From a virus (Duplodnaviria > Caudoviricetes), in IMG/VR virus record IMGVR_UViG_3300029288_000071, positions 64,001 to 128,000 of that record: DNA of 64,000 nt. The stretch is one strand, 5' to 3'. Under the pieces are notes generated by a model that was given only the letters and a program-made list of their open reading frames with translations, ran no database searches and had not been told where the DNA came from. Both the position numbers and the translations under genes were made by a program. Below are positions 1,413 to 61,903 of this stretch, one piece after another. Every line of letters starts with the position of its first letter. Positions within the stretch are counted from its first letter, which is position 1.

Positions 1413-1640
1413 TTAATAACCAATCTTTTTCATTAAATCTGTTACTTTCTTTTGTTCTTCTATAACTTTTTGTTTTTCTTCAGTAGCTTTATATTTTGCT
1501 GGACGGATAGCTGTATGATGTATATCATAGCAAATTGCTGGCTTTTTACAATTTTCACATGGGCCTCTGCTTCTTGAAGCTATATCTGCCCAAAAATCAT
1601 CAATATTAAATTTTTTAAGACATTCATCACATAAGAACAT
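1413..1640 (-). CDS. Small Zn-finger protein with C-terminal LMKKIGY module
   Basis: CxxC...CxxC; ends TDLMKKIGY. Confidence 0.7.
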   Translation of the reverse strand: MFLCDECLKKFNIDDFWADIASRSRGPCENCKKPAICYDIHHTAIRPAKYKATEEKQKVIEEQKKVTDLMKKIGY

Positions 1641-1824
1641 TTTAACCTCTTTCAGAATATTTCTTTTTTAGATACTGTCCTCGTAACTTTTTATCTTTAT
1701 AGTGTCTCCACTTATACAAAATAATAAGTGGATCATAGGCTCTGTTCCAATTCTTTTCAAAACCTCTACGACAGCGTTTTGCTTTTACACCATTTCCGAA
1801 AATCATTCCTATTAAATTCATAGG

Positions 1825-1900
1825 TCGGCATAGTAGGAATTGAACCTACCTAAACTTGCTTATAAGACAAGGCGAATGCGACCAGCTTCGTTTTATGCCG
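1825..1900 (-). tRNA. tRNA-Ile(TAT)
   Basis: CTTGT-CTTATAA-GCAAG; perfect acceptor stem CGGCATA/TATGCCG. Confidence 0.8.
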
Positions 1901-2027
1901 GATTTTACCATCTATCAAGAGGATCTTTTTTGCTAAAACAAAAATAAGTTAATCCTACAATCATATAAATTATTAACCCTATAGCAACTAAATCTCCAGG
2001 TTTCATGGTATCTCCTTTTTAATTTAT

Positions 2028-2222
2028 CTATGATTGAATTACATATACATGATGCAAATTTTCATATTCTTCTTTGGCTTGTTCTATATCTGTTTCTTGA
2101 ATAACTTTTTCTGTTAATTTTCTATCTTCATGTTCTTTAGGCTTCCATCGATTGGAATGCCCAGTTTTATGGGGTTTACATAAAGGACAACTTCTTCGTT
2201 TATTCTTTAGTTGTTTTCTCAT
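2028..2222 (-). CDS. Small basic protein with CxxC-H motif
   Basis: MRKQLKNKRRSCPLCKPHK; the ORF-track start lies inside a tRNA-like gene. Confidence 0.6.
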   Translation of the reverse strand: MRKQLKNKRRSCPLCKPHKTGHSNRWKPKEHEDRKLTEKVIQETDIEQAKEEYENLHHVYVIQS

Positions 2223-2247
2223 ATAGATTTTCGTTTTTACTAATAAA

Positions 2248-2389
2248 TGGTGGAGCCATCCGGATTTTACCAGCATCTCTCTACTTTCATGATAGAGCGT
2301 TCTTTAGACTTCAAAATAGTTTAATGAAATATTTAATGGCTTAAGCCAGTATTTCAGCCATTAAGCAATCTAGTTTGAACTATGACCCC
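2248..2389 (-). tRNA. Atypical tRNA-like gene with about 70-nt D-loop insertion, anticodon ambiguous
   Basis: Acceptor GGGGTCA/TGGCTCC-A-CCA; D stem GTTC/GAAC encloses a long structured insert; anticodon arm CTCTAT-CATGAAA-GTAGAG. Confidence 0.55.
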
Positions 2390-2396
2390 GTTATTG

Positions 2397-2468
2397 CAGA
2401 CCTAAGTGGTGCCGCCCCACTATCCCTTGGTTCAAAGCCAAGTGCTTCTACTGTTGAGCTATAGGTCC
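2397..2468 (-). tRNA. tRNA-Gln(TTG), non-canonical T loop
   Basis: CTTGG-CTTTGAA-CCAAG; T loop GGCGGCA. Confidence 0.8.
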
Positions 2469-2684
2469 ATTTTCTAACTTAAAAACGCTTGTTTTATGTT
2501 GAACAATTATAAATTTTGTGTGACAATTTTTACATTCATAAGGATCATTTTCATCAATAGAAATAAACAAATCATCATCACCATAATCAAATCCGCATTC
2601 AGGACAGTATTTAAGTGCTAAAAGTTCTTCTTCTTCCCAACTTTTCCAAAATTTAACTTTGTCTGTAATATCTATTTTATTCAT
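2448..2684 (-). CDS. Small Zn-ribbon protein
   Basis: CPECG...CKNCH. Confidence 0.65.
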   Translation of the reverse strand: MNKIDITDKVKFWKSWEEEELLALKYCPECGFDYGDDDLFISIDENDPYECKNCHTKFIIVQHKTSVFKLENGPIAQQ

Positions 2685-2686
2685 AG

Positions 2687-2770
2687 TGCGAATATAGGGA
2701 CTTGAACCCTAACGAGATTTCTCTCACTGGCTTCTTAGACCAGCACGTATTCCAATTCCGTCATATTCGC
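2687..2770 (-). tRNA. tRNA-Leu(AAG)
   Basis: CTGGT-CTAAGAA-GCCAG; long variable arm. Confidence 0.85.
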
Positions 2771-2775
2771 GTTAG

Positions 2776-2848
2776 AGCACCATAAGGGAGTCGAACCCTT
2801 CTATCTGGTTTGGAAGACCAGCTCCTAAAGCCGCTCGGACAATGATGC
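2776..2848 (-). tRNA. tRNA-Gly(TCC)
   Basis: CTGGT-CTTCCAA-ACCAG. Confidence 0.85.
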
Positions 2849-2850
2849 GT

Positions 2851-3108
2851 TTATAGATATTTCTTAATTAAATATTTCTTATTTATTTTAAATTTTTTCA
2901 ATGTAGAATCTGGAACATCCCAAGGATATTCTAAAACTGGATATTTTTTTATACACATTACGATTTTACCACATTTGGGACATTTATGCTCATATCGAGC
3001 TAATTCTGCATCTGTTTTTTCCCATCCTGTATATTCTACAATACCTTTTTTACATTTTTCACATATCCAATCATGTGAAAACATTTTGAATAAAGAATAT
3101 TTATGCAT
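2851..3108 (-). CDS. Small Zn-ribbon protein
   Basis: CEKC...CPKCG. Confidence 0.6.
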   Translation of the reverse strand: MHKYSLFKMFSHDWICEKCKKGIVEYTGWEKTDAELARYEHKCPKCGKIVMCIKKYPVLEYPWDVPDSTLKKFKINKKYLIKKYL

Positions 3109-3269
3109 TTTATTATTTTTCTTGTTTGTTATTTTTTATTTCAAGTTCAGCTTTTAATTTTCTATTTTCAACAAGCAAATCTCTAACTTGTTGAGCATAA
3201 TCAGCTCGAAGTTTCAGTTCTGCTTTAAGCTTTTCAATTTCTTCTTTGAGTTCAATAAAAGTCATTTTG

Positions 3270-3346
3270 TCCGCTCAGTTGGAGTTGAACCAACGTGTGA
3301 CCGTCTACCCTTTCAACGGCTTATCAGACCGAGGGGATATGAGCGG
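3270..3346 (-). tRNA. tRNA-Ile(GAT) with rearranged D region
   Basis: Perfect acceptor and T arm; anticodon arm CGGT-CTGATAA-GCCG begins about 8 nt after the acceptor 5' strand; D-loop-like AGACGG lies 3' of it. Confidence 0.7.
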
Positions 3347-3351
3347 GTTTT

Positions 3352-3927
3352 TCAAGTTGTAAGCTGGATTGTTGTTTTATTTTTTATCAAATCAACAAGT
3401 TTATTTAATCTTTTCTGTTCTTTCTTTAATTCTGGCATTAATTTCATATTATGTCGTTTGTAAGATGCAAATGCTGTAGAAAGCCAGCTAATATCACTTT
3501 CATCATCAACTAATCTTGTTAAGACTTTAAGCTGTGATAACTCATTTAATGTAACTACTTCGCTATCTGAACAACCCCAACAAAAAGTATCACTACAACT
3601 TAATGTTAAGACAGGATTACTGTCATAGTAAATTGTTTTATCTTCTCTTTTAGCATTCCAATCAGATTCTTTTTTGCTTTTTACAATATGAATAAATAAT
3701 CCGTGATTTTTGAAAAATTCTAAAACTTCTTTTTCTTCATCTTTTAAAGAATTATACCATAATTCTAAAATAGCAGCTCTAGTTGTGATATCAGAATAAC
3801 ATGCATTCCAACCATCTTCCCATTTAGTTCTTTCTTTTGAAGATACTTCTTTACCTTTTTCATCAACTGTTGATGTTTTAGCTGGATATATTCCTGTTGT
3901 ATCTAAAACTTCTTCTAAAAAATTCAT
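3352..3927 (-). CDS. Hypothetical protein
   Basis: 191-aa ORF; GWNAC and CSDTFCWGCSD motifs. Confidence 0.65.
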   Translation of the reverse strand: MNFLEEVLDTTGIYPAKTSTVDEKGKEVSSKERTKWEDGWNACYSDITTRAAILELWYNSLKDEEKEVLEFFKNHGLFIHIVKSKKESDWNAKREDKTIYYDSNPVLTLSCSDTFCWGCSDSEVVTLNELSQLKVLTRLVDDESDISWLSTAFASYKRHNMKLMPELKKEQKRLNKLVDLIKNKTTIQLTT

Positions 3928-4190
3928 ACATCATATCCTATCTTTTGCATTAATAATTCTATTTTCAAATCTTCATCTTTAATATCATTGATAGAAACTC
4001 TTTTTTGAGTTGCTGTTATTACACTTTGTTGAGTTCTTTGAATCTGCTTCACATATTTTTCTACGTATTTCGATAATTCCCTTGGTTTGAGATGACCAAC
4101 ATCTATATAATAGATTTTGCGCGAAGAATCAATTTTATGTTCATATAATTTGTTTTTATAAACTCCAGGAGTTTGAATTCCATTTAACAT
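3924..4190 (-). CDS. Portal-clip-like mini-protein with LMQKIGY module
   Basis: RKIYYIDVGHLKPRELSKYVEK matches RRIFYIDVGNISANDVPSFMQK of this genome's portal. Confidence 0.7.
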   Translation of the reverse strand: MLNGIQTPGVYKNKLYEHKIDSSRKIYYIDVGHLKPRELSKYVEKYVKQIQRTQQSVITATQKRVSINDIKDEDLKIELLMQKIGYDV

Positions 4191-4208
4191 AAAAATTTTC
4201 CTTTTTTG

Positions 4209-4281
4209 TGGTGACTCTCGGTACCGCCCCGAGTTCTACGGTTCTTCAGACCGTCGCAATGGCTTCACCTGCTCAGTCACC
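4209..4281 (-). tRNA. tRNA-Phe(GAA), non-canonical T loop
   Basis: ACGGT-CTGAAGA-ACCGT; T loop GGCGGTA. Confidence 0.8.
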
Positions 4282-4725
4282 GTTTTTACTAAAACCATCT
4301 ACTGTATATCCTAATTTATACATTAAGTTTGTACAAGGATCTTCTAATAACTTATTTAATTTCTCTTGTTTTATAAAAATAGCTTCTCGTCTTATTTGTT
4401 CAGATTTTTGTTCAAAGAATATAGCAATTTCATCTTTATTTATACGATTATTTTTATAACCATTTAATGATACTGACCAATTTAATTCATAATTATCTGA
4501 AAAAGTGCATATAAACTTCAAATCTTCTAGATCACTTGAAAAACTAATAATTCTCCATTCAAATTTCAAGTTTGGAAATTCAGCTTTCATCATTTCTAAA
4601 ATTGATTTTTCAAAAATGGGCCAATCACAAAAATCATTAACATTTTTTGCATCATTCCAATATTTAGAAACAGTTTTTTCTTGTTGTCTTGTTAACCAAG
4701 CAATATGTGCTTTATCTTTTTTCAT
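4273..4725 (-). CDS. Hypothetical protein with LMYKLGY module
   Basis: DPCTNLMYKLGY near the C-terminus. Confidence 0.65.
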   Translation of the reverse strand: MKKDKAHIAWLTRQQEKTVSKYWNDAKNVNDFCDWPIFEKSILEMMKAEFPNLKFEWRIISFSSDLEDLKFICTFSDNYELNWSVSLNGYKNNRINKDEIAIFFEQKSEQIRREAIFIKQEKLNKLLEDPCTNLMYKLGYTVDGFSKNGD

Positions 4726-4876
4726 AACCCATCTTATACATTAACTGTTGTATAGGGTCAATTTCTTCAACAACTTCAACTTCTTCTCCAAGATAATATG
4801 GTTTTTTTAAAGAATTAAAAAAAATTGTTGGTTCAGTGCATTTTTTTAAATAATCATTGTATGTCATCTGTATCAT
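4712..4876 (-). CDS. Small protein with LMYKMGY module
   Basis: Start MIQMTY just after tRNA-Pro; ends DPIQQLMYKMGYEKR. Confidence 0.6.
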   Translation of the reverse strand: MIQMTYNDYLKKCTEPTIFFNSLKKPYYLGEEVEVVEEIDPIQQLMYKMGYEKR

Positions 4877-4878
4877 AG

Positions 4879-4952
4879 TCGGTGTAGCTGGATTTGAACC
4901 AGCGATTTCTTGGTCCCAGGCCAAGCGGATTTCCGGGCTTTCCTATACACCG
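4879..4952 (-). tRNA. tRNA-Pro(TGG), C33
   Basis: CTTGG-CCTGGGA-CCAAG; CGG/CCG-A acceptor. Confidence 0.8.
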
Positions 4953-5173: not shown

Positions 5174-5175
5174 AG

Positions 5176-5246
5176 TAGCGCATAAGAGTGCCGCCCTCTT
5201 GTTTCCAGCTTGAGAAACTGGTATCTTTCTGTTCGATCAATGCGCC
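5176..5246 (-). tRNA. tRNA-Glu(CTC), non-canonical T loop
   Basis: CCAGT-TTCTCAA-GCTGG; T loop GGCGGCA. Confidence 0.8.
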
Positions 5247-5252
5247 AATTTG

Positions 5253-5441: not shown

Positions 5442-5445
5442 TTTG

Positions 5446-5523: not shown

Positions 5524-5850
5524 TTAATAACCAATTCTCTTCATTAAAACTTCAATTGGATTGATAGTTATCTTATTATCTGTTTTAATGTGAAATTTAT
5601 TTATAAAATCCATATAATCAAATTTATCAGAACTATTTCGCAATTCATCAAGTCTTACATTTTCTACTTTAACTTGACCTTGATGTCCGTATCTATCTTT
5701 CGTCACATAGCATCTAATTTGAAGAATATGATCATTAGTTAGAGGTTGATATACATCTTGAATATCACCTACAAATGTAGCATATTCTATTTCTCTCTGA
5801 TCAAGTTTTTCTTGAACATGCCAGCATTCATGTATCTTCATCAGTTTCAT
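5524..5850 (-). CDS. Hypothetical protein with LMKRIGY module
   Basis: Ends NPIEVLMKRIGY. Confidence 0.65.
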   Translation of the reverse strand: MKLMKIHECWHVQEKLDQREIEYATFVGDIQDVYQPLTNDHILQIRCYVTKDRYGHQGQVKVENVRLDELRNSSDKFDYMDFINKFHIKTDNKITINPIEVLMKRIGY

Positions 5851-6308: not shown

Positions 6309-6383
6309 TGCTTCTATTGGGATTTGAACCCAAAGTCTTACGCATTAAAAGTGCGATGATTTAGCCAGTTAATCTATAGAAGC
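6309..6383 (-). tRNA. tRNA-Lys(TTT)
   Basis: CGCA-CTTTTAA-TGCG. Confidence 0.85.
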
Positions 6384-6554
6384 ATTTTTATAACCCATTT
6401 TCTTCATCAATATTCTTATAGGATCGGTTTCAATTTTAGATTTTATTTTTTTATTTTTATTTTCAGGATGATAATCAGGATGATATTTATGTGCTCTTAT
6501 CATTCCATCCCAAAAACCATCATTAACATAATCACGCCATTGCTGTTTAGTCAT
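6369..6554 (-). CDS. Small protein with LMKKMGY module
   Basis: DPIRILMKKMGY. Confidence 0.6.
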   Translation of the reverse strand: MTKQQWRDYVNDGFWDGMIRAHKYHPDYHPENKNKKIKSKIETDPIRILMKKMGYKNASID

Positions 6555-7183: not shown

Positions 7184-7633
7184 TCAATCCCATCCATGAC
7201 ACCCACAATAAAATTCATCAAATTCTAAGCCGCCAACACAAGGTTCAAATTGCTTTCCATTATGTTCACATAAAGATTCCATTTTCTTTTTACTATTTTC
7301 GTAATAACCAGTTCCACCTTGAGATGGATGAGCATCAGCAAAATAGAAACAATTTTTACATTTAGATTCATATTTAGAACCTGGGCCTCTATATTCAAAA
7401 AATGCTAAATTTGGTGATGAATCTCTTTCACAAGTGCAAGTTGAACCACATTTTGAACATTCAGACTTATGAGTTTGTTTTCCATAAAAACCGCAGCGAG
7501 CCTTTCTGTTTTTAAGCAATTCTTCTACATTGTGTTCTGTATCAATTTCAAAACAAGAACAAATAACACAAGCAGGTTTGTTATTACTGATAGAATTAGC
7601 AATATGTCCGCATTTCATTAAAGGTTTATTCAT
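7184..7633 (-). CDS. Cys-rich hypothetical protein
   Basis: Multiple CxxC motifs; ends FYCGCHGWD. Confidence 0.65.
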   Translation of the reverse strand: MNKPLMKCGHIANSISNNKPACVICSCFEIDTEHNVEELLKNRKARCGFYGKQTHKSECSKCGSTCTCERDSSPNLAFFEYRGPGSKYESKCKNCFYFADAHPSQGGTGYYENSKKKMESLCEHNGKQFEPCVGGLEFDEFYCGCHGWD

Positions 7634-7862
7634 ATCCCATTTTTCTCATTAATGTAACTATTTCTGCTCCACCATGTCGTCTAATTTGATATGCTTCATG
7701 TAAAGCTTTGTAATTTTGTTGAACAGCAAATGTTGCTAAAGGATTTCCACAACAATGAACATTTAAAATACTTGATTTATATCTGTTTTTATAATTTCTT
7801 TTCCACCAAGCTTGTTCTTTATTCTGTTCTTTTTTCCATTGTTGTATGTCATAATTTATCAT
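7626..7862 (-). CDS. Small protein with LMRKMGY module
   Basis: Start MINYD after tRNA(CAT); ends EIVTLMRKMGYE. Confidence 0.6.
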   Translation of the reverse strand: MINYDIQQWKKEQNKEQAWWKRNYKNRYKSSILNVHCCGNPLATFAVQQNYKALHEAYQIRRHGGAEIVTLMRKMGYE

Positions 7863-7869
7863 AAAGTAG

Positions 7870-7944
7870 TACCGATGTAGGGAGTTGAACCCTATATTTT
7901 TATAGATTATGATTCTATTGCACCAACCGTTATGCGCCATCGGC
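7870..7944 (-). tRNA. tRNA-Met or Ile2(CAT)
   Basis: ATAGA-ATCATAA-TCTAT. Confidence 0.75.
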
Positions 7945-7953
7945 ATTTATTTG

Positions 7954-8133: not shown

Positions 8134-8337
8134 CTAATCCAGCTTAAGTTTTTCTTTACAATAGCCATTTATAAAATGATTTCTTAAAAATAATTGAACA
8201 TTCCAAGCAACAGATTTATATAAACATTCTTTACATAAAAAATAATGATTCCCATTTTCATCAAATTCTTGAATCCAGTCAGGATCTTTTTGAAAATATC
8301 CCATTTTTATCATTAATATTTCTACTTCAGATTTCAT
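8134..8337 (-). CDS. Small Zn-finger protein with N-terminal LMIKMGY module
   Basis: MKSEVEILMIKMGY...CKEC...H...C. Confidence 0.6.
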   Translation of the reverse strand: MKSEVEILMIKMGYFQKDPDWIQEFDENGNHYFLCKECLYKSVAWNVQLFLRNHFINGYCKEKLKLD

Positions 8338-8492: not shown

Positions 8493-8568
8493 TGGAGCGG
8501 GAAACGGGGCTTAAACCCGTGACCTCATGCTTGGCAAGCACGTGTTCTATCAACTGAACTATTCCCGC
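8493..8568 (-). tRNA. tRNA-Gly(GCC), encoded CCA
   Basis: GCGGGAA acceptor; CGTGC-TTGCCAA-GCATG. Confidence 0.85.
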
Positions 8569-8770
8569 AATAAATTTTTACAACAACTCCAGAAGTAATT
8601 TTACTGCTACTATCAATAAAGCATCCAGGTTCAACTTCATAACCCATTTTTTTCATCATTTCATTAATCTTGAATTCTTCACTAGTAAGATTTTTTATAT
8701 ACCAAACTGATTGATTCTTACTAATAGTTTCAAATTCATGTTCTTTAAAATTTGCTGAAGTATCTTCCAT
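8525..8770 (-). CDS. Small protein with internal MMKKMGY module
   Basis: KINEMMKKMGYEV. Confidence 0.55.
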   Translation of the reverse strand: MEDTSANFKEHEFETISKNQSVWYIKNLTSEEFKINEMMKKMGYEVEPGCFIDSSSKITSGVVVKIYCGNSSVDRTRACQA

Positions 8771-9550: not shown

Positions 9551-9622
9551 CTGCTAAAAAAGGATTTGAACCTTTGACTCTTCTTTCAGAGAGAAGTGTT
9601 TTACCAATTAGACTATTTAGCA
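9551..9622 (-). tRNA. tRNA-Gln(CTG)
   Basis: CTTCT-CTCTGAA-AGAAG; U1-A72, G73. Confidence 0.85.
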
Positions 9623-9909
9623 ATTTTTTCTTTATAACCCATTTGATTCATGATATTTTTTATCTGTTGATCTGTTTCATATTCTTCAGAAAAAGTTATT
9701 GAATCAGGAGATACCCAAATAACATGACCAATTTTAAAATATGAATCTCTGTGTTTTTGTATAAGTTCAATGAGAATTTTTTGTTTTTGAAGGATATTAT
9801 TCTTTCGATAATCACGAACTTCTAAAATTTTCCAAAGACCAATTTCATCTCCTGAGTTACTAGGAATGTCATTAACAGTAGCACCAACATGTAATTGTTC
9901 ATATTTCAT
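9613..9909 (-). CDS. Small beta-rich protein with IMNQMGY module
   Basis: QIKNIMNQMGY. Confidence 0.6.
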   Translation of the reverse strand: MKYEQLHVGATVNDIPSNSGDEIGLWKILEVRDYRKNNILQKQKILIELIQKHRDSYFKIGHVIWVSPDSITFSEEYETDQQIKNIMNQMGYKEKIAK

Positions 9910-9991: not shown

Positions 9992-10258
9992 TTAAATTTG
10001 ATAACCCATTTTTAACATTAATCTATTTATATCGTCACTTTTTATTTTTTCTTCTTCAATAAAATATTTTGCCCAATCTGATAGTTGATGAGAATCTTTA
10101 TCTTCATCAATTAATTCTATTTCTTTTTTATTACTATGATCTTTATATCCTGTTCTACCTTTCCAAACTTTATAGAATTTTCCTTTAATGAAACTTGGAT
10201 GATTTTCTGTATCCATAGTCAATGTTTTTGTACAATAAAATAATTTATCTTTCATCAT
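9992..10258 (-). CDS. Small SH3-like protein with LMLKMGY module
   Basis: FIKGKFYKV; DINRLMLKMGY. Confidence 0.6.
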   Translation of the reverse strand: MMKDKLFYCTKTLTMDTENHPSFIKGKFYKVWKGRTGYKDHSNKKEIELIDEDKDSHQLSDWAKYFIEEEKIKSDDINRLMLKMGYQI

Positions 10259-10547
10259 ATCCTATTTTTTTCATTAAAACTTTTGTATATAAATCAATAT
10301 CATCAGTTTTCAATAATGTGAAACAATTCCATTCAAAACAACAATAAGGAAATTCTTTTATTTCAACAAGCTTATCAGCATAAATTCGCTGAATAGTATA
10401 AGTTTCTCCAATTTTTATTATTTTATGTATTTCTGTGATTATGCTATAACAAAACTTATTTTCTGTACAAACAACTGTATCTCCTTCTTTATAAGGAATT
10501 TTTAGATTAGCAAATTTGATTCTGAATGTTAATTTATCATCATTCAT
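10245..10547 (-). CDS. Small SH3-like protein with LMKKIGY module
   Basis: YKEGDTVVC...IGETYTI; TKVLMKKIGY. Confidence 0.6.
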   Translation of the reverse strand: MNDDKLTFRIKFANLKIPYKEGDTVVCTENKFCYSIITEIHKIIKIGETYTIQRIYADKLVEIKEFPYCCFEWNCFTLLKTDDIDLYTKVLMKKIGYDER

Positions 10548-17255: not shown

Positions 17256-17513
17256 CTAATATCCCATTTTACTTAGGAGTAAGCTCTCATATTCAGGTTC
17301 CTTTTGAATTCCTGTTTCTTGTAATAATTCTTCAGCATTAACAATTCTTGATAATCCACAATGAACACAAGATAAAGAAACTTTTCCTTTGAAAAATCCT
17401 TCATACTTCTTAGAATCACCCACTTCTTCAATTTCCCACTGATGAATTTCATTAGTTTCAGAACATTTACAAAACAAATTATGTTTGTTTGAAAAATCAA
17501 GTGAAAATATCAT
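17256..17513 (-). CDS. Zn-ribbon protein with LLSKMGY module
   Basis: CKC...CVHCG; ends SLLLSKMGY. Confidence 0.6.
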   Translation of the reverse strand: MIFSLDFSNKHNLFCKCSETNEIHQWEIEEVGDSKKYEGFFKGKVSLSCVHCGLSRIVNAEELLQETGIQKEPEYESLLLSKMGY

Positions 17514-38838: not shown

Positions 38839-39447
38839 TTAAAATTTACTAATTTTATCTAAAATGTTATTAACTGCTACTATTCTATCAATTTTAGGAT
38901 TGTAGAAATATTTCTTATGAAAATCATAAGATTCTGTTAAAATAGCTTTAGATACAGATGGATTTGCTACTGCATCATAAGTAATTAATTGTAAATCTTC
39001 ATTTACAATTTCATGATTTTCATTATTTCTTCGAGTTGAACCAAAAGCTCGTGAGCTTGTTCCTACTGAACCACCAGCTTCAAGAATAGCTTTTAAATCT
39101 TTTCCTTTTGAAGTATTTAATACTTCTGCTTTACCTACAACTTTATTATCTTGCCATTGAAGTTCTTTTATTAACCAGCAAGCATTGCTAAGTTCTATAA
39201 TAGAACTATCTGGATGATCTAAAGCTCCGTATGCTCTATTCTCTTCAATCATCTTTTGAAATTTTTCAACTTCTCTTTCAAGAATTTCTTTTGGATAAAT
39301 TCTATCATTTTCATTTAAGGTTCCTGCTTCTGAGAATATTCCAGAAAGAATAACAGGTCCACCAGATTGAATTTGTTCTTTAATTAATTGCTGATTATAT
39401 GCCAATGGTCTGTAAGTAAGCAATAATCTTTGTTGTTTATTTTCCAT
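38839..39447 (-). CDS. Prohead core protease (T4 gp21-like)
   Basis: NENDRIYP, GALDHP, GTSSRAFGS, YDAVANPS. Confidence 0.9.
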   Translation of the reverse strand: MENKQQRLLLTYRPLAYNQQLIKEQIQSGGPVILSGIFSEAGTLNENDRIYPKEILEREVEKFQKMIEENRAYGALDHPDSSIIELSNACWLIKELQWQDNKVVGKAEVLNTSKGKDLKAILEAGGSVGTSSRAFGSTRRNNENHEIVNEDLQLITYDAVANPSVSKAILTESYDFHKKYFYNPKIDRIVAVNNILDKISKF

Positions 39448-45447: not shown

Positions 45448-47388
45448 TTACTTTAAAAATTCATTAAGTTGTTCATCATAACAGTGAATCAATTTATTCT
45501 CAATTGCTACTTTATTTAATTCTAAACTATGTTCTTTACAAATTCTTATATAGTCTTCAATTTCAATTTTATTGTTTTCTTTACACCATTTAATTAATTG
45601 TTTTATGAGCTTAAGATGATTATTGATTATATCTTTAGCTCTTTCTTTTTGTTCTTGAAGCATAACTTCAATTAATTTATTTGTAGAATCAATGTCATAA
45701 TTCCAAGCTCCTGCATCATTTGGAGTTTTAGTCGTTATTCTAGATAAATTACCGTCCATTCCTAATCTGCGAATAAAAGATGAAGCATATTCAGTAGCTT
45801 GAGCTAAATCTTGTATGCTTCCAGCAGATCTATAATTATCTCCAAAAATTGTTTCTTCTAAGATTTGCCCTGCTAAACATATACAAATATCATTTTTCAT
45901 ATATATTTTATTTGAAACTCTATCATGAAAAGCAGTAAATCCATTATTTGTTATACGTGTAGAATTTATGTTTATTTGAGTTGGAGCACATTTATATAAA
46001 ACACTATAAACAATGCTGTGCCCTAATTCATGTACTGCAACTAATATTTTTTCATCTATAGATTTTTTCTTTTTGATAGATTCAATATCAAGTTTTATAG
46101 TTCTTTTTAAATCTCCACAAATTAGCTTATCATATTCATGATCAATAACTATAGATTGTAAATCGTCTTTCATTGAATAAAATAAGAAATATGGTAGATT
46201 ATTCTCTAATATTTGAGAAATTGTAGATAATACAGGTCGTACTCCTTGAGTTGGAAACACTCCATTTTTATAGATTAAATCGTAAATAGCATCTGTAAAA
46301 CTTATATCAATTTTAGTATTTTCTTTTACTCTTTTTGAAATTTCAAAACAATGATTTTTGATGATTGTTTGATAACTAGATTTGCTTAAAGTAGGATAAA
46401 TAATATGTGTATTTCCGAATCTAGAAATCTGTTCTGGCTTAAATTGTTTCATTAAAGATTTTTTAATTTCTACTATGTTAATTTTTTTAGAAAATTCATG
46501 ATATATGTCAGCATCCATTTCAACATCTTCTACTTCACCACTCATACTGAATGCTTCATCTAAATTTCCTGATATGAAAATTAACATTTTCTGATAATTA
46601 TCACCTTCATAAGTTTCATTTTTGTCGAAACTTCTTTGAAGCAAATCTAACCTTTCATCTGGAGATAGTTGCATTATTTCTTCAATTGTTAAATTAGACT
46701 TTAACAATCTCTTAAATTGTTTTGCTTTATAATAATATGTCTGATATTTGAACTGAGGTTTTTCTTTTGGTACTTCTGAATCTTCTATTTTTTCTATATC
46801 ATTGCTATTTAAAGCTTTAGATTTTCTTTTTCTTTTTTTAGGAATAGGATCATTATTTTTATGCCATAATGTGTATTCTTTGTCATAAAGTTCTTCCATT
46901 ATTAAAGAAAATATTTCTCTTCTATTGCTAGAATTTGATTGAAATTTTCCATCAGAAAGAAGCATCCAAATGTCATTAAAATATTCATTATCTCTGATCA
47001 TGTTTCCTTCTTCATCAATAGTTCTAAATCTTTGCATTTCATCTAGCAATAAAATACAAGGCTCTTTAGAATCTACATTTGTATTTTCAATGACATCTTG
47101 AATCTTTTTAACGTGTTCTTCTTTCATGTCAAGTTGAATTTCAATGAATTTATCATTAAATTCTAAAAATTTAACAAGCTTTCTAACTAAATCAGTTTTC
47201 CCCACTCCTGTTGTACCCCATAAAGAAATTATCATAGGTCTAGATTGTAATTCAGGCATGACATACCATATTTGAATGTTATTGACAATTTCATCTATGA
47301 TATTGTCTAAACCTACAAATTCATGTTTTAGAAAAACTTTAAGTTCTTCTAATTTTTCAAGCTTTTTTTGATAATTTTCATTTATCAT
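45448..47388 (-). CDS. Soluble AAA+ ATPase fused to M41 (FtsH-type) peptidase
   Basis: GTTGVGKT, LLLDE, FKPEQISRF, GVRP; AVHELGH, CLAG..EE..FG, GS..DL..AT; no TM. Confidence 0.85.
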   Translation of the reverse strand: MINENYQKKLEKLEELKVFLKHEFVGLDNIIDEIVNNIQIWYVMPELQSRPMIISLWGTTGVGKTDLVRKLVKFLEFNDKFIEIQLDMKEEHVKKIQDVIENTNVDSKEPCILLLDEMQRFRTIDEEGNMIRDNEYFNDIWMLLSDGKFQSNSSNRREIFSLIMEELYDKEYTLWHKNNDPIPKKRKRKSKALNSNDIEKIEDSEVPKEKPQFKYQTYYYKAKQFKRLLKSNLTIEEIMQLSPDERLDLLQRSFDKNETYEGDNYQKMLIFISGNLDEAFSMSGEVEDVEMDADIYHEFSKKINIVEIKKSLMKQFKPEQISRFGNTHIIYPTLSKSSYQTIIKNHCFEISKRVKENTKIDISFTDAIYDLIYKNGVFPTQGVRPVLSTISQILENNLPYFLFYSMKDDLQSIVIDHEYDKLICGDLKRTIKLDIESIKKKKSIDEKILVAVHELGHSIVYSVLYKCAPTQININSTRITNNGFTAFHDRVSNKIYMKNDICICLAGQILEETIFGDNYRSAGSIQDLAQATEYASSFIRRLGMDGNLSRITTKTPNDAGAWNYDIDSTNKLIEVMLQEQKERAKDIINNHLKLIKQLIKWCKENNKIEIEDYIRICKEHSLELNKVAIENKLIHCYDEQLNEFLK

Positions 47389-50400: not shown

Positions 50401-50559
50401 AGATAGAATACTCTTACTATGAAAAATATCTCCCACTAAAACAATTCTATCTACTTTTTGTTCTTTTAATGATTGATATAGTTTTTCAAAAATTATTCTA
50501 TATTCTTCATGTCTCTTATATAGCAAAATATGAATATCTGCTAAATGTGCTATTATCAT
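47401..50559 (-). CDS. SbcD-SbcC (Mre11-Rad50, gp47-gp46) fusion
   Basis: HLADIH, GD, GNHD, GDIH; APNRSGKS, CQSC hook, GSGME, MIDESFGTLD. Confidence 0.9.
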   Translation of the reverse strand: MIIAHLADIHILLYKRHEEYRIIFEKLYQSLKEQKVDRIVLVGDIFHSKSILSPEAVDLGSDFFRNLANIAPLDVIIGNHDVNLKNNERLDSITPIVNNITDSKYQIIVYDQSGLYPISDDVVYGVFSCLDEPNFPINYDIMDVVTSKPTFNTKKGKFIALFHGNISGSVSETNFTFKDTGYDASIMFKNYDAAFLGDIHRLQQIGKMNVWYCGSLIQQDYSEGLQKGYLLWNTDSLSSKPKFVQIPNDNAFYNLKVAYKVDKQNMPIIDNPAKNSSIRLTLSNFTYTVSEIKQIELELRQKYNPIALEVKRDYEQTKKESAFQFQKIKSTADITVQNDLITKFLDKTDSITIERILKINNKIRNSISNEEIMQPNFWKVHEIDWDFTFSYGENNHLNFKNLKGVTGLFAPNRSGKSNFIDTFLYVLFNKSARMSKITKIINNKADTCKAFITIEVNGVLYKITRSSKRVGDGTSTKVTLEKYIDEKWTSATGDSRTDTDKIIRKLIGNFDEIVVSNISSQGKISYFLESGFDETFRLELLSKFLGLNIFKLQYDEAHRLTNEFDTLLKQFKQIDYATFIKNYHDEIEKLNDSLIDLEEDKQYSITQLDQVKIQHAVLKTMIQEVEDIAVANFDKEKIETLHTGLIVQKQSEEKLLEEESKKIERMKLLNLSNKVTELQVKLKEKERLTTDLRQVESDIRVSNLGLKKDKSRVEILERQPWTETTDTCQSCEFFQEADKLKKELKRIENEQNKLIVKKSKIELDIIPISNVDKELEIIKDQILEIQRLENQIKIRSLNIEKLALQIDKAQAILDEQNKEAQTIESIKQIKESNAQISELIAEKEIEIINLNKIVNTVDYNIVAHNKRISELENNIIKSETDLKTMNQLELDSNDYKLYQRCVHREGLPYMIVSSYIDIINDEIHKIVGDYIPFSIKFSLDYDKKSIPISIIYENGTSNPIELGSGMEKTISAIAIRAALASISNIPHCNVFMIDESFGTLDKDWISSIDKFINQLKILFEHVILISHVSEIQDFVDQTITIDTTSGNSQIQF

Positions 50560-50981
50560 TTATATCCCATTCTTTCCATTATTTTTGATAATTTTTCTTT
50601 CATTTCTTTTTGACTCATTATATCTGCATCTAATAATTGTTTAAATATTTCTTCAAAAACTTCAGTTACTATTTCTTCTTTTAATTCAGCTTTAATTTCA
50701 GCTTTAATATTACGTTTAAAAAATTCTTCTTCATGTACATTAGGATGATTTAAACCAGTAGGTCCAGTAGATATACCATAAGTAGATGCACCAATATTTG
50801 AAGAAAAAGATTGTATCCCACTTGTTGAAGGAGGAAGTAGCACATTTGGTACATTAGCACAAGAACTGCTATATGATATTAATGAATTTGATTTACCGTA
50901 TGAATTGATATATGATTTTAAGTCATCAAGCTCTTCTGATTCTTTTTCTTTAATATTAAATAATTTTTTAAATATATTCAT
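50556..50981 (-). CDS. Low-complexity protein with IMERMGY module
   Basis: Ends LSKIMERMGYK. Confidence 0.55.
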   Translation of the reverse strand: MNIFKKLFNIKEKESEELDDLKSYINSYGKSNSLISYSSSCANVPNVLLPPSTSGIQSFSSNIGASTYGISTGPTGLNHPNVHEEEFFKRNIKAEIKAELKEEIVTEVFEEIFKQLLDADIMSQKEMKEKLSKIMERMGYK

Positions 50982-51919: not shown

Positions 51920-52439
51920 TTTTCACGCCATATAGGGCAATGATATACGAGTCCGCCATATCATAACATTCAGGAATTATTTTTCCTTTATTTCTACCTT
52001 TATTTTTTAAGGGCCAAGTGAAGAGCTTACAATTAGAATTTATCCACTTGAAAACTTCTTCTTTTGCATTTACTCCTTTAGGATAACGACCTATTCCTAT
52101 AATTGATTTTCTAGCAGATGATGCCATTATTTCTATAGGAAAAGTATTAAATTTTTTACATAGTGTAAATAAAAAAGCACCATTAAAACGCAATATTGTG
52201 CTAAGTACTTGTGCAGAAGATAATCCTTTACTAAACATCATGTTAGGTTGTTCAGCATAAATTTTATCAACTGTAAAGTCTTTAAGTTTTTTATCGAATT
52301 GTTCAATTGCAGAGTTAAGTTTTTCAAATAAAGTATCACCAACTGGTTTAATATAATCAATTAAAATTAAGTTTTTGTTTTCATCTAAAATAGTTAAGCC
52401 TACAGTAGAAGTACTTATGTCAAGCCCTAAAATATTCAA
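51900..52439 (-). CDS. RuvC-like Holliday junction resolvase
   Basis: ILGLDISTSTVG, YAE, DMADS. Confidence 0.85.
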   Translation of the reverse strand: MNILGLDISTSTVGLTILDENKNLILIDYIKPVGDTLFEKLNSAIEQFDKKLKDFTVDKIYAEQPNMMFSKGLSSAQVLSTILRFNGAFLFTLCKKFNTFPIEIMASSARKSIIGIGRYPKGVNAKEEVFKWINSNCKLFTWPLKNKGRNKGKIIPECYDMADSYIIALYGVKNESTTN

Positions 52440-52852
52440 ACTTCGTATCCGATTTTCTTCATTAGCTTAGTGATTTCATCTATTGATCCAAATATTTGTT
52501 GTTCAAATTGTATAATTCGTTTAATTTGTATAGAATGATGTGGAGATGTGCAATAATAAGCTGTTTTTAATAAAGGAACATCAACATCTGAAAAATCAAA
52601 TTCATCAAAAAAATATTTGTTATTTTGTTTTGACCGAACGATGTGATCATTACTATGTAATTGATTGTAAGTTATTATTTGAATTTTTTTGGGATCTGAA
52701 CAATCATATTTCTTTTTTATTAAATCTCGCATGCTATAACTTGGAACAACAATAGTGGCTGTTCCATTTCCTGATAAAACCCATTGATGAACAGCTTGCA
52801 TCATACGGTGAGTTTTTCCACTTTGTCTTGGAGAGATATCAAGTTCCATCAT
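52436..52852 (-). CDS. Mini terminase-ATPase-like protein with LMKKIGY module
   Basis: SPRQSGKT Walker A, FFDE Walker B, CTSP; EITKLMKKIGY. Confidence 0.7.
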   Translation of the reverse strand: MMELDISPRQSGKTHRMMQAVHQWVLSGNGTATIVVPSYSMRDLIKKKYDCSDPKKIQIITYNQLHSNDHIVRSKQNNKYFFDEFDFSDVDVPLLKTAYYCTSPHHSIQIKRIIQFEQQIFGSIDEITKLMKKIGYEV

Positions 52853-57581: not shown

Positions 57582-58711
57582 TTTCAGTTTCCTTCAATTT
57601 ATTTTCTTCTCTCTTCTGTGCTTCTTCAGCAAGAGTTTTTATCATTTCAGCATTTCGTTGTTTTGTAACACGTTTAATTTTTCTTTTTTCTTTTTCAAGT
57701 TCAATAATTTTATGATCATGAATCAATTTAATTTTTAAATCTTTATGAATAATTTCAGCTGGAGCTATAGCTACAGCATCTAAATAAAAAGTTTGACTAG
57801 GTCCATCTTCAATAGATTGTAACATAATTTGCTCTTTTTCCCAATCTATTTTAGAAGCATAATAAAATTCTAAAAAACCTCTTGATATATCACCAGCATA
57901 ACAAAATGCCGTTCTAATTTCATTTTTTTCTAAAGAAGTAGTAATATTTATTTGATATTCTTTAGGAAGATTTTCAAATATTGCATATGTAAACCATTTA
58001 TGTCTTTCACCCGGTTTAAGTATCTTTAAACATTTTTGAAGAATTTCTTTATATTTCTTCCTATTCATTACTACTAACTTCTTTCACTAAATCTATCAAG
58101 TTATCAAACCATAAGTTTGCTTTTTCCCAATCTATTTCTTCATTTGTAGCAGGATCAATAAAATCAACGCGATACACACGATATTGTGTATCATTCCAAA
58201 ATCCAATAAATGATACATTCCCAGAAGGGTATTTTTCTATTGTTAATTTTTTAATTTTTTCTAGAAGTTGGTTTGACTTGCTATTACTAACATTACTTAT
58301 GAATTGTAATTTTAGTTTTTGAGGCTCAGTTAAAACATTTTGTAATTTTGAGCCACCAATTTTTGACCAAATTTCAAATAAATTAATTATTTTTTTCTGG
58401 TGTATCATTTACATAATCTACAGTATATTTGTAACCTGCGGAAGTTTTTTCAAAGTGAATTTTATAAGAATCTATAAATTTTTTAGTATCTTTATTATCT
58501 TCTAACCAACAAACATAACCTGCTTCTAAATTTTCTCTTGAACTCATTATAGAATTTATAATAAAGCATTTTTGAACATTTTCATTTTTAAGTAAATCAT
58601 CACCTGTCAATTTTTCATCTACTAATTTTCTATTTTCAGTATAAATAAGAGCAAGTTGTTCTATAAATTCTTCTAATTTCTTGTCTAGTTCTTCAGACAT
58701 ATTTTCTTTCT

Positions 58712-58850
58712 AAAAAAATCAGGTCAAACAAAATAATGTCAAATTCTCGATGATTTTTGAAAGGGAGACTTTTTTCGTCATCTTGACTAAGATTTGCTTG
58801 ACCTGAATGACCTCCGATGAGTAGTTTTTACTCATTTGTGGATGTTATAA
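58712..58850 (-). ncRNA. Intergenic structured RNA candidate ending in a T run
   Basis: TCAGGTCAAGCAAA/TTTGTTTGACCTGA, GTCAA/TTGAC, GATGA/TCATC; ATATTTAT upstream. Confidence 0.45.
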
Positions 58851-58871
58851 TATAAATATAATTTTATCTAA

Positions 58872-59489
58872 TTAAAAATCATTTTTTGCAATAATTTCTC
58901 CAACTGAAGCATATACTAACTTAACATATTTATCATTAACTTTTTTCATTTTTGACCCTTTGATGTCAATTGTCCCATTATGAGATGAAATAGCATAATC
59001 ATATCTCCCATACTTAACAAGAGAATTTTTTAATAACTGTGCAGCAATATGTGCATTATAAGCTGGAGTTAACAATTTCTCTTCAGTGACTTTAGGATCT
59101 ATTCTCATAGCAGTTTCAAATTGAATCATAAATAAGCCATAGGACCATTTTTTATTACTGTCCATTATTTTTCTATGAGCATATTTAAACTTAGCACTTT
59201 CATGCCAAGACATTCCACAGAAAATTGCTGGCTTAAGTCCATTAACTTTAGCTGTATCTATTAACATTTTCATGATTTCTTGTTCTTTAATTTTGTAAAA
59301 AACTGAATCTGTCATGTCAATAAAGTCTTTAGGACTAAATGCTACTGATTGACTTTGGATTGGAAGTAATGTCTCTGCTTGTGCTGATGTTGGTTTTACA
59401 CTATCAAATACTTCCAAAATTCTACAACTTGAGATTCCTGCTAAAGTTGTAAGGATTAGTAAAACAACTACTAAGGTTTTTATTTTCAT
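58872..59489 (-). CDS. SLT-family lytic transglycosylase
   Basis: HES, SYGLFMI, SSHNG; N-terminal signal peptide. Confidence 0.75.
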   Translation of the reverse strand: MKIKTLVVVLLILTTLAGISSCRILEVFDSVKPTSAQAETLLPIQSQSVAFSPKDFIDMTDSVFYKIKEQEIMKMLIDTAKVNGLKPAIFCGMSWHESAKFKYAHRKIMDSNKKWSYGLFMIQFETAMRIDPKVTEEKLLTPAYNAHIAAQLLKNSLVKYGRYDYAISSHNGTIDIKGSKMKKVNDKYVKLVYASVGEIIAKNDF

Positions 59490-59513
59490 TGAGTTCCTCT
59501 GATGAATGAATAT

Positions 59514-60053
59514 TTAGTTTCCACAACACTTCTTGAACTTCTTTCCTGAACCACAAGGACAAGGATCATTTCTACCAACTTTAATCTGTTTTGTTTCTTT
59601 GTAAATTTTATCAGTTATCAATATTCCGTTAAGATGATCAAATTCGTGTTGAAAAATAACTGCTTCTTCGTCTACGAGGACAAATTTTTGCCTATTTGTT
59701 ATAGAAGCTTGTGTAGAAACTGTTATTTGTTTTGCTCTTTTTACTTTTACTTCTTTATTTGGAATTGATAAACAGCCTTCTTCTGATATTATCTCTTCTT
59801 TTTCATATTCTTCTATTTGTGGATTGATCCATTTAATAAATTCATATTCTTCTATTTGTGGATTTTGCCATTCAGATTTGTTTTTCTTAAATTTAGTTAT
59901 AAAAATTCTAACAGGTAGCCCAATTTGAACTGCTGCTAAACCAGAACCCATTTCCGGAATTTCTTTAAGAAGCAAATCTACTACTTGCTGACTTTCTTCA
60001 AAAGGTATTTCATTACTTACTATCTTAAGTTTTTTCTGGTCTATAATAATCAT
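59514..60053 (-). CDS. def: Peptide deformylase with SEC-C tail
   Basis: [22 protein letters not shown]; [18 protein letters not shown]. Confidence 0.95.
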
Positions 60054-60064
60054 TGATTGAAATA

Positions 60065-60093
60065 AATATAAATAAAGAATGATTAAGAGTAAA
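60065..60093 (-). promoter_or_regulatory. Promoter TTTACT-N17-TATATT
   Basis: Matches the consensus; 11-bp inverted repeat at 60103-60139 upstream. Confidence 0.7.
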
Positions 60094-60591
60094 CGTTATT
60101 TCACTGTTAAGTAAATCTAATACTTAACTACTTAACAGTAAATACATGACAAAACTAAAAATGAATAGTTTGATCAGCAATTTTTATCAATTGCCATTCA
60201 GGGATAATCCATCCTCTGCCTCCATTTGGAGAAGATTTTATTAAGAAACTTCCACTGCCCAAAATGTTTTGTAATTTTTTAGTTTCTATTACATAAAGAA
60301 TTTCTGGCATGTCTAAAGTTTTGGGTTTATTAGTTACCCACCATTTACACTGATTTTTACAATTATCCAGTTTATCTATTTCAATCCAAGCATTCCCTGT
60401 TTGTAACATTCTATAGTCAGTATATAATTGAAGAAATTCTCCTTCTGCATTAGCAAAATCAATTAAAGATCCTTTATGCTGTTTTTTAACAACTGACCAA
60501 TTTGTTTTCTTTTCTATATTTTGTAATAGTTGATTTTCAGTGTCTATTTTTTCCTGAAATGATTTTGCTTGATAGTCTTCTGATAATGAAG

Positions 60592-61638
60592 TCATAAATT
60601 TTTTAACCTTGCGTTAATTCGATATTGTGAAATATTCGTTGCATTCATGTAAGACATTGAACTTTGTAATCCTGTCTTGAATCTTTTTATAACCTTAGCA
60701 ACAGAATCATCAACATAAGGAACTAACGTTTCATTACCTTCATTAAAATCTGGTTTTTCATTGCTAAATTCTTGTTGTACACTAAATGATGCTGCACCTC
60801 TATAAGTCTTATACTTTGAACCATCTTCTAACTTAAGAACATTTCCTGGAGTTTCTTTATATCCTGCAAATATTTTTCCTGCCATTACTAAATCAGCACC
60901 AGCAACTAAAGCTTTACACATATCAGATGGAGTTCTAATTCCTCCATCAGCAATTATTAGAGTATTTTTTTGAACAGACTTACATTCTAATACAGATTCA
61001 AGAGTAGGCATATACACACCCGTTTCAGTTTTTGTAGAACAAACTGAGCCGCCACCTATGCCTACTCGGATAGCATCTACTCCTAAATTCTGTAAAAATT
61101 CAAATCCTTCTTTTGTAGCTACATTCCCAGCAATAAGATATACTTTACCTGTATAATTTATAGGCTCTGTTTCTCCAATACGTAAATTTGTTATTGCTAA
61201 TGAATCTTCATATAAACTTACGCATTTCCTTATCCATTTAATCGCTTCTTCAATTTGTTTATTTGCTCCATTAGCTGTATCTAGACAAAAAATTCTGCAA
61301 CCCGCAACAAATAATTCTTTAAATCTTTCTTTATAGTCTCCCGTAATTCCTATAGCACAAGCTATAGTTTTTAGTTCTACTCCTAAATGCGCCGTATTGT
61401 TTGTATAGTACTCTTTTCTTTGTTCTTCAATAGATTGAAATCTATGAATGATTCCCAGAGCACCAATTCCTGCTAATCTATAAGACATTTCTCCATTACA
61501 TACATCGGGCATAGGAGAAGCTATAATCGGAACATCTAATTTTGTTCCGAAACAATTTATTGATGTGTCACAATCTTTTCTGTGTTTTATTTCTGAGATA
61601 ACTCTTGGTATTAATGTTGTATTATTGAATGTTTTCAT
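60592..61638 (-). CDS. IMP dehydrogenase/GMP reductase family, no CBS domains
   Basis: IAGNV, VGIGGGSVCST, IIADGGI, YRGAAS. Confidence 0.9.
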   Translation of the reverse strand: MKTFNNTTLIPRVISEIKHRKDCDTSINCFGTKLDVPIIASPMPDVCNGEMSYRLAGIGALGIIHRFQSIEEQRKEYYTNNTAHLGVELKTIACAIGITGDYKERFKELFVAGCRIFCLDTANGANKQIEEAIKWIRKCVSLYEDSLAITNLRIGETEPINYTGKVYLIAGNVATKEGFEFLQNLGVDAIRVGIGGGSVCSTKTETGVYMPTLESVLECKSVQKNTLIIADGGIRTPSDMCKALVAGADLVMAGKIFAGYKETPGNVLKLEDGSKYKTYRGAASFSVQQEFSNEKPDFNEGNETLVPYVDDSVAKVIKRFKTGLQSSMSYMNATNISQYRINARLKNL

Positions 61639-61903
61639 ATCCTATATTTTTCATTAAAAATTTAATTTTATCAAAATTAGATTTTTTATAACTTTTTAAA
61701 CTTTTGATATCATTGAGTGATACATCAAAAGGTACTCCATCATGTTCAATATTACCATCTGAAATACCTATCAATGTTACTTTGTTTTCTTTATATCTAG
61801 CAATAACAAAATTGTGCCAATCATCTTCAGGATTTACCCAATAAATTTTAACTGGATTGCCGATATTGTTTTCTATGATTCTATCAATCTGTTTTAATTC
61901 CAT
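61622..61903 (-). CDS. Small Sm/SH3-like protein with LMKNIGY module
   Basis: DKIKFLMKNIGY. Confidence 0.55.
   Translation of the reverse strand: MELKQIDRIIENNIGNPVKIYWVNPEDDWHNFVIARYKENKVTLIGISDGNIEHDGVPFDVSLNDIKSLKSYKKSNFDKIKFLMKNIGYENIQ

Follow-up and report, generated by a model that had tools for sequence, protein, structure and literature searches.

The 207,030-bp viral contig IMGVR_UViG_3300029288_000071 (29.4% G+C) encodes a peptide of about 13 residues, here called the tag, that recurs on many small and otherwise dissimilar proteins. The stretch under study, referred to as the window, comprises bases 64,001–128,000 of this contig (64,000 nucleotides); where a search covered the whole contig, it is described as genome-wide. 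The tag has the consensus [E/D]-D-P-I-x-x-L-M-x-K-[M/I]-G-Y-[D/E], and the constraint on it acts on the peptide. A flexible charged linker joins the tag helix to at least 28 otherwise unrelated small proteins. Judging from these sequences, the tag is likely to be an address or docking label by which a single conserved partner, probably encoded by the phage, handles a fast-changing set of accessory proteins. As for the mechanism, the one that we tentatively prefer, by analogy with phage T4, is that the label may load the tagged proteins into the assembling prohead; they would then ride in the capsid and enter the next host along with the DNA.

Occurrence of the tag and constraint on its peptide

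A sequence-only reading that preceded this analysis had named 16 open reading frames (ORFs) of the window as carriers of a common motif. All 16 bear it in minus-strand coding frames and all the ORF coordinates were right (Table 1). The core regular expression [LMI][MSN]x[KRNQ][MIL]GY gave 15 matches in the window, all of them from the three frames of the minus strand and none from the opposite strand; the sixteenth copy is a weaker variant, LLSKMGY-stop, at 17259. A 14-position profile was then built from the tag copies and applied genome-wide with a cut-off of 12 bits. It yielded 29 hits in 28 ORFs, whereas the next-best score was 7.4 bits. Below this gap four or five degenerate variants were found, such as …KFLTAKMGYK-stop and …DALMDKMGT…. 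The abundance of the motif is well above that of shuffled proteins: in the non-overlapping gene set of the whole genome the strict pattern occurred 27 times, while 2000 within-protein shuffles averaged 0.42 occurrences, with a maximum of 4. Separately, a 380-aa protein encoded directly upstream of the large terminase (36888–38030, minus strand) ends in …NPYALAWWMKKKGYKSHY…, a tag-like string in which Lys replaces the M/I ahead of G-Y and which is absent among the profile matches listed.

The G-Y pair is invariant in the 29 copies, and the hydrophobic residues (I, L, M and M/I) fall at positions i, i+3, i+4 and i+7, that is, on a single helix face. The D-P or D-D preceding them would act as helix start (N-cap) and the Gly as helix stop. 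Glu and Lys are enriched in the ten residues that precede the tag. Most copies (23 of 29) end at most 10 residues from the C-terminus of the protein; two are N-terminal (window ORF 8134 and genome position 23678), several others are internal, and one 77-aa ORF bears a tandem double tag. The capped amphipathic helix proposed by the earlier reading agrees with two AlphaFold2 models, in which the tag lies in a helix ending at the Gly. Confidence in both is low (mean pLDDT 51 and 66) because each was built from an alignment of two sequences. The model of ORF 5524 has a beta-rich body, a 12-residue linker of low confidence and the tag helix, and that of ORF 1413 has a Zn-ribbon-like body followed by a long helix (residues 49–72) that includes the tag and stops just before G-Y.

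Codon choice in the tags follows genome-wide usage for every amino acid, in agreement with the synonymous variation that the sequence-only reading had pointed out. The invariant Gly is encoded by GGA (15), GGT (12), GGC (1) and GGG (1); the Leu at position 8 by five codons (TTA, TTG, CTA, CTC and CTG), and the M/I position (position 12) by ATG, ATA, ATT, ATC and TTA. Substitutions stay within their class (I/V/L; K/R/Q/N). When the tag copies were compared, no sequence was conserved past the Tyr codon, and neither this comparison nor the codon-usage test revealed base conservation beyond the needs of the peptide. An acidic residue follows the Tyr in 17 of 25 cases (p ~1e-10; background 12%). 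In 6 of the 29 copies the start codon of the next gene, ATG, is embedded in the TAT-GA(x) encoding Tyr-Asp/Glu, and once the cases of overlap with the next ATG were excluded, the residue was still acidic in 11 of 19. The spacing between the tag and the gene or tRNA behind it is variable, from an overlap up to more than 60 nt. The genome-like codon usage, the class-conserving replacements, the lack of conservation after the Tyr, the variable spacing and the persistence of the acidic residue evidenced that the constraint acts on the tag peptide.

These data bear on the explanation that the signal resides in the nucleic acid, the 21–40 nt being a translation-initiation region, a promoter, a processing signal or a recombination cassette, and the peptide its by-product. 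The usual gene-terminal position of the tag, with the next gene or tRNA close behind, the six copies overlapping an ATG and the A-rich DNA of the tag would be expected in that case. However, third codon positions are free and the Leu codons belong to two codon families, and neither these features nor the class-conserving replacements, the variable spacing and the unconserved sequence after the Tyr codon fit a nucleic-acid signal. In addition, N-terminal and internal copies occur and one copy lies on a contig of ~50% G+C, described below. We consider this explanation very improbable, the least probable of those weighed here.

In ORFs 6369, 8525 and 9613 the reading frame beyond G-Y enters a tRNA gene, so the short tails of these proteins are probably unselected read-through. 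Likewise, the listed start of ORF 4712 (4924) falls inside tRNA-Pro (4878–4952), and its true start is probably the ATG at 4879, which gives a protein of 55 aa.

Protein bodies and relatives

The carriers range in length from 55 to 174 aa. The claim that their bodies are unrelated stood in that, with the tag masked, no pair of carriers gave a significant BLAST similarity, and searches of Pfam, PHROG and NCBIfam assigned the carriers to no family. The particular assignments that had been proposed fared less well. The portal-like character of ORF 3924–4190 is a weak resemblance (pairwise E 8e-5; Pfam Portal_T4 E 0.004), confined to a 30-residue stretch (residues 24–53) that is similar to the RRIFYIDVGN segment of the portal, and the ATPase-like cargo of ORF 52436 comes down to a Walker-A-like string; this ORF shows no similarity to the phage's own terminase. 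Outside the window, two carriers (genome 139652–140050 and 140037–140261) include segments of Gp23, the capsid protein of this phage, with BLAST E values of 1.6e-8 and 8e-11 and Pfam Gp23 E values of 3.3e-8 and 2.1e-4. Both are located downstream of a class II ribonucleotide reductase gene. A search for homologues of two carriers among 5.8 billion proteins recovered the queries alone.

A related phage is represented by a 39.6-kb IMG/VR contig (G003, loci L013 and L120), which spans the syntenic tRNA region and contains 12 tags. Its conserved genes show 75–80% DNA identity to this genome and its tRNAs ~84–100%, whereas an orthologue in this genome was detectable for only 2 of its 10 tagged ORFs; a third holds a Gp23-like piece. 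In the orthologue of ORF 5524 the tag is identical at 10 of 12 positions and the whole protein at 39%, with indels in the linker; in that of ORF 1413 the corresponding values are 7 of 12 and 64%, with a 4-aa indel in the linker. Conservation of the tag thus exceeds that of the body in the first pair and is roughly equal to it in the second. These comparisons support that the tag is kept in the related phage while the bodies turn over. They also support, together with the absence of detectable similarity between bodies and the C-terminal, N-terminal or internal positions, that the tag is portable.

The opposite view is that there is no portable tag, and that the carriers are a diverged paralogous family in which the motif is the last and best-conserved core helix of one small fold. 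Most carriers are small (55–174 aa), clustered and fast-evolving, so common descent with lost similarity is conceivable, and remote homology may be beyond the reach of BLAST. Nevertheless, carrier lengths vary threefold, and the N-terminal, internal and doubled tags leave no single position for the helix. Furthermore, Gp23 pieces were recognised in two carriers and a portal piece in a third. The low-confidence models show a Cys-rich, Zn-ribbon-like body in one case and a beta-rich body in the other, and the linker ahead of the tag shows indels between orthologues and low model confidence. A common fold seems improbable to us on this evidence.

Beyond G003 the tag is scarce. An 11-kb contig whose portal is 69% identical (G005) has one tag and another fragment of the same lineage (G004) has none. 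Scanning of the genomes of the closest cultured phages by portal identity, Microcystis phage Mel-JY01 (45%) and Flavobacterium phage immuto (38%), did not detect it. A DNA-pattern scan of IMG/VR found multiple copies only in the G003 contig; the other matches were single and mostly out of frame, as expected of chance matches. In the scan of a metagenome collection there were 27 single matches, one of them seemingly genuine, and no multi-copy contig. This copy is in a 145-aa ORF (L133 765–1202; L150 1028–1465) that ends in …EYDPIDHLMQRIGYEV-stop, a perfect copy of the tag (the ending is also given as …DPIDHLMQRIGYEV-stop), on a contig of 1.5–3 kb with ~50% G+C. A single short gene separates this ORF from a gene that has 55% identity to ORF 55210–55863 of the present genome. 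By these scans the tag is restricted to a lineage, yet it is not tied to low G+C, because of the copy on this ~50% G+C contig.

Possible prohead loading and candidate partners

By its gene content, the source of the window is a distant T4-type myovirus: the window encodes the large terminase and a T4-type portal (E 1.6e-69), and the gene of a Gp23-type capsid protein (E 2.9e-69) lies outside it. The possible loading of tagged proteins into the prohead was considered by analogy with the internal proteins of T4, which have been described as defence proteins of diverse kinds that have only the capsid-targeting sequence in common (PMC3012670). That sequence binds the prohead core and is then cut off by gp21 (PMC7411985). 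In the T4 genome, ipI immediately precedes the tRNA cluster, ipIII and ipII follow it at a distance of ~5 kb, and the IPII and IPIII proteins begin with the same ten residues, MKTYQEFIAE, ending in I-A-E. A prohead protease of the gp21 type is encoded in the window (Table 1), and since the maturation site of the capsid protein aligns L-N-E/G with L-T-E/A of T4 (the slash marks the cut), it is probably T4-like. The Gp23 and portal pieces of some carriers were also counted in favour of prohead loading. A fast-evolving scaffold as the partner would explain why the tag is specific of a lineage.

Several observations weigh against this mechanism. The candidate partners are linked to the tag by presence alone, and no partner emerged from the analysis. 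The tag is mostly C-terminal, whereas in T4 the signal occupies the N-terminus and is cut away at an L/I-x-E site; of the 27 windows between body and tag, 9 contained [LI]-x-E, which is no enrichment over the 28% background. Moreover, the tagged genes are placed among tRNA, replication and nucleotide-metabolism genes, outside the head module, and the T4 late-promoter word TATAAATA was not enriched on the coding strand (23 vs 28). The capsid and portal pieces could be a mere record of the birth of small genes. A G-x-E prohead-protease site at G-Y-E had also been considered and was dropped, as the capsid protein's own site looks like L-x-E. Given the predominantly C-terminal position and the lack of L/I-x-E enrichment beside the tag, the tag system may work like the T4 signal although it is no member of that family. 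In a literature search, no description of a shared C-terminal motif on small phage proteins was found.

Another possible partner, already proposed by the sequence-only reading, is the AAA-M41 protease of the phage, and the tag would then be a degron or an adaptor tail for it, serving scheduled clearance or bait-plus-handle delivery. The protease is real and looks active by its intact Walker A and HELGH motifs; it has no membrane anchor and belongs to a family of ~640-aa proteins. It is encoded in a gene run headed by a tagged gene (ORF 50556–50981, followed by an SbcCD-like fusion and the protease itself) and it is absent from both tagless cultured relatives. Furthermore, AAA+ proteases usually recognise terminal peptides. 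However, the family of this protease is very widespread (883 representatives were counted at E <=1e-30), whereas the tag is confined to one lineage, and in the 6.3-kb contig of the nearest homologue (46% identical) the neighbouring small ORFs have neither the tag nor a common ending. The tails of 0–10 residues after G-Y and the N-terminal and internal tags also fit poorly with the recognition of a free C-terminus. For the co-occurrence of tag and protease, the fragments G003, G005 and G004 do not span the protease locus. We regard a protease handle as unlikely, and less so prohead loading. A more elaborate form of this proposal, which appears doubtful, is that the tagged proteins make up a library of bait-plus-handle adaptors, whose bodies would bind host targets and whose helix would hand the complex to the protease; bodies with capsid or portal pieces would bind, for instance, a defence sensor that recognises those pieces. 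If this were true, the library would be a bacterial-virus counterpart of the eukaryotic viral adaptors that redirect host degradation machinery.

The stand-alone C39 peptidase of the double-glycine type was a further candidate, for which the tag would be the recognition helix, as in bacteriocin and lanthipeptide systems. Its residues Q8, C14, H98 and D114 are invariant in 15 homologues and its gene is in the head-gene block; in related T4-like contigs, homologues precede the terminase gene. G004 and the tagged G005 encode the peptidase, and the cultured relatives, which have no tag, lack it. An invariant Gly comes after the amphipathic helix of the tag, and in two ORFs the tag forms an N-terminal leader of 14 residues. 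Against this, the tag ends in G-Y and not in G-G/A/S, and its hydrophobic register is one off that of double-glycine leaders, a comparison that rests on general knowledge. Since most tags are C-terminal, a cut after them would free almost nothing. In addition, there is no tag in phages with more distant C39 homologues (27–33% identical) nor in the 12.7–15 kb regions around closer ones (49–51% identical). A complex prediction of the peptidase with a 37-residue tag segment scored 0.02–0.04, the mark being 0.32, in a single run without controls, and this counts neither for nor against recognition. The nearest solved relative, PeiR, is a pseudomurein (cell-wall) endoisopeptidase, which is why the C39 peptidase may be a lysin; alternatively, it may be a processing enzyme. 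A literature search gave nothing on phage C39 peptidases linked to capsids. Recognition by this peptidase is, in our opinion, rather improbable. In C39-bearing relatives, an Intein_splicing domain is inserted inside Portal_T4 (L154 6690–9299; L156 11181–14957), while the portal of this window is intein-free.

The tag could otherwise direct proteins to the membrane, as the C-terminal amphipathic helices of MinD or FtsA do, or dock on a conserved host machine, for instance RNA polymerase, a chaperone or the sliding clamp. Its short amphipathic helix, which has Lys/Arg along the polar side and a Gly at the end, resembles MinD-type tails, and host machines are targeted by many small early phage proteins. 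The acidic residues on both flanks of the helix, however, disfavour binding to anionic membranes, and the invariance of G-Y and near-invariance of Met suggest a specific pocket. To our knowledge the tag matches no clamp, single-stranded DNA-binding protein tail or other host-hub motif, and its absence from the related phages of cyanobacteria and Flavobacterium (Mel-JY01 and immuto) also counts against this proposal. Both variants of this proposal were judged quite unlikely.

A 640-aa protein encoded at the head of the cluster of tRNAs and tags (10753–12675, minus strand) was also inspected as a candidate reader. It is 85% identical in G003, belongs to a widespread phage family, and the predicted structure of this family resembles the body of the bacterial RING-domain proteins MXAN_6230/SCO0854 (TM 0.72) without the RING.

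Taken together, our order of preference places loading into the prohead first, followed by the protease handle, a membrane or host-hub dock, a common fold, C39 recognition and, last, a nucleic-acid signal. If the tag is an address label, approximately one tenth of the phage genes would be marked for one partner, and a single peptide would open ~28 proteins without assigned function to pull-downs, localisation and particle proteomics. If capsid loading in particular is true, the T4 strategy of injecting changing and often anti-defence small proteins would extend beyond T-even phages, with a signal that differs from that of T4 in being C-terminal, and a new short tag would be available for packaging foreign proteins into phage heads.

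Genome setting and comparison with known systems

Nearly all genes are on the minus strand, and the whole contig encodes roughly 320 proteins. Tagged ORFs concentrate in the region of 23 tRNA genes with small ORFs between them (265–14,998, minus strand), which also includes an HNH endonuclease gene (13062–13703). Other tagged genes have a DNA-metabolism block (50978–63948, minus strand) between and around them; here, ORF 52436–52852 is separated from the primase gene downstream of it by a single 179-aa ORF.

Table 1. Tagged ORFs, candidate partners and other annotated genes, in window coordinates
Feature	Coordinates	Strand	Remarks
75-aa ORF, Zn-ribbon-like body (CxxC...CxxC)	1413..1640	-	Tag 1416-1457 at the C-terminal end, …DLMKKIGY-stop
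88-aa ORF	3924..4190	-	Tag 3933-3974, …LLMQKIGYDV-stop; portal-resembling residues 24-53
150-aa ORF	4273..4725	-	Tag 4306-4347, end 10 residues on; ATG within TAT-GAA of the upstream tag
55-aa ORF	4712..4879	-	Tag 4724-4765, EIDPIQQLMYKMGYEKR-stop
108-aa ORF, beta-rich body	5524..5850	-	Tag 5527-5568 at the C-terminal end; tRNA-Arg 3 nt on
61-aa ORF	6369..6554	-	Tag 6390-6431, top profile score (24.3 bits); tail into tRNA-Lys
106-aa ORF	7626..7946	-	Tag 7632-7673, …TLMRKMGYE-stop; ATG of following gene within TAT-GAA
67-aa ORF, N-terminal tag	8134..8337	-	Tag 8296-8337, MKSEVEILMIKMGY…, then CxxC body
81-aa ORF, internal tag	8525..8770	-	Tag 8639-8680; frame runs on into tRNA-Gly
98-aa ORF	9613..9909	-	Tag 9634-9675, …NIMNQMGYKEKIAK-stop; tail overlaps tRNA-Gln
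88-aa ORF	9992..10258	-	Tag 10001-10042, …RLMLKMGYQI-stop; tRNA-Asp next
100-aa ORF	10245..10547	-	Tag 10257-10298, …VLMKKIGYDER-stop; ATG of following gene within TAT-GAT
85-aa ORF, Cys-rich body	17256..17513	-	Weaker tag 17259-17300, …LLLSKMGY-stop, 12.4 bits
141-aa ORF	50556..50981	-	Tag 50562-50603, …KIMERMGYK-stop, 12.0 bits
138-aa ORF, Walker-A-like string	52436..52852	-	Tag 52445-52486, …KLMKKIGYEV-stop
93-aa ORF	61622..61903	-	Tag 61637-61678, …FLMKNIGYENIQ-stop; ATG of GMP-reductase/IMPDH-like gene within TAT-GAA
Soluble AAA+/peptidase M41 (FtsH-like) protease	45448..47388	-	Candidate reader; Walker A GTTGVGKT, HELGH
Stand-alone C39 (double-glycine type) cysteine peptidase, 178 aa	40654..41190	-	Candidate reader; PF03412 E 1.1e-17
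Prohead protease, Peptidase_S77, T4 gp21 type	38839..39447	-	Relevant to prohead loading
DnaG-type primase	50978-51919	-	DNA-metabolism block
Fpg/Nei glycosylase	56748-57581	-	DNA-metabolism block
SLT transglycosylase domain	58872-59489	-	DNA-metabolism block
GMP-reductase/IMPDH-like gene	60592-61638	-	DNA-metabolism block
ThyX	62974-63948	-	DNA-metabolism block

Some other features of the genome were observed. The SbcCD-like fusion is a single ORF of 1052 aa (47401–50559, minus strand) that joins an SbcD-like phosphoesterase to an SbcC/SMC-like ATPase; in T4 the counterparts are the separate genes 47 and 46, and the fusion is also present in the relative L155. The head-gene block encodes a 387-aa protein (31278–32441, minus strand) with a zinc-finger segment of the DnaJ-type CXXCXGXG or Anti-TRAP-like kind at residues 99–134. 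Finally, a second shared peptide, in this case N-terminal (MKTR-x-GF[VI]SNSS[ST][ST]SF), opens four otherwise differing ORFs at genome positions 42431–48945, outside the window and ~15–21 kb ahead of its start.

Comparison of the tag with the tails read by AAA+ proteases (the ssrA tag and the XB tail of SspB) and with the poxvirus ankyrin/PRANC proteins revealed a similar combination of a constant handle and variable bodies, and an AAA+ protease is encoded in the window. The tag differs from those tails in tolerating variable extensions and non-terminal positions, and no link to the protease was found. We know of no phage-encoded family of protease adaptors or degrons. With the leaders of double-glycine C39 systems the tag has in common the amphipathic helix, the invariant Gly behind it and the attachment to many different cargos, and the genome encodes an intact C39 peptidase. 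These leaders, however, are N-terminal, have 15–30 residues and end in G-G/A/S, while the tag closes with G-Y-D/E, is found mostly at the C-terminus and has a hydrophobic register one position off theirs; in addition, no transporter is evident here.

Encapsulin cargo-loading peptides are C-terminal stretches of ~10 residues that, behind a flexible linker, direct unrelated cargo inside an HK97-fold shell. The tag is likewise a short, mostly C-terminal peptide following a flexible linker on unrelated proteins. Encapsulin peptides are extended, rich in Gly, Ser and Leu, and bind the shell protein directly, whereas the tag is helical. No encapsulin-type cargo-loading system is known to us in tailed phages.

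The system most similar in its logic is the capsid-targeting sequence of T4 (carried by IPI, IPII, IPIII and Alt). In both cases a short peptide is common to diverse and fast-evolving small proteins of a T4-type phage, and the genomic setting is near tRNA genes, as the T4 internal-protein genes flank the tRNA cluster. The T4 signal, however, is an N-terminal propeptide of ~10–20 residues bounded by an L/I-x-E site, whereas the tag has another sequence, is mostly C-terminal and helical, and has no such site enriched beside it. The scale differs as well, with ~28 genes here in comparison with four in T4.

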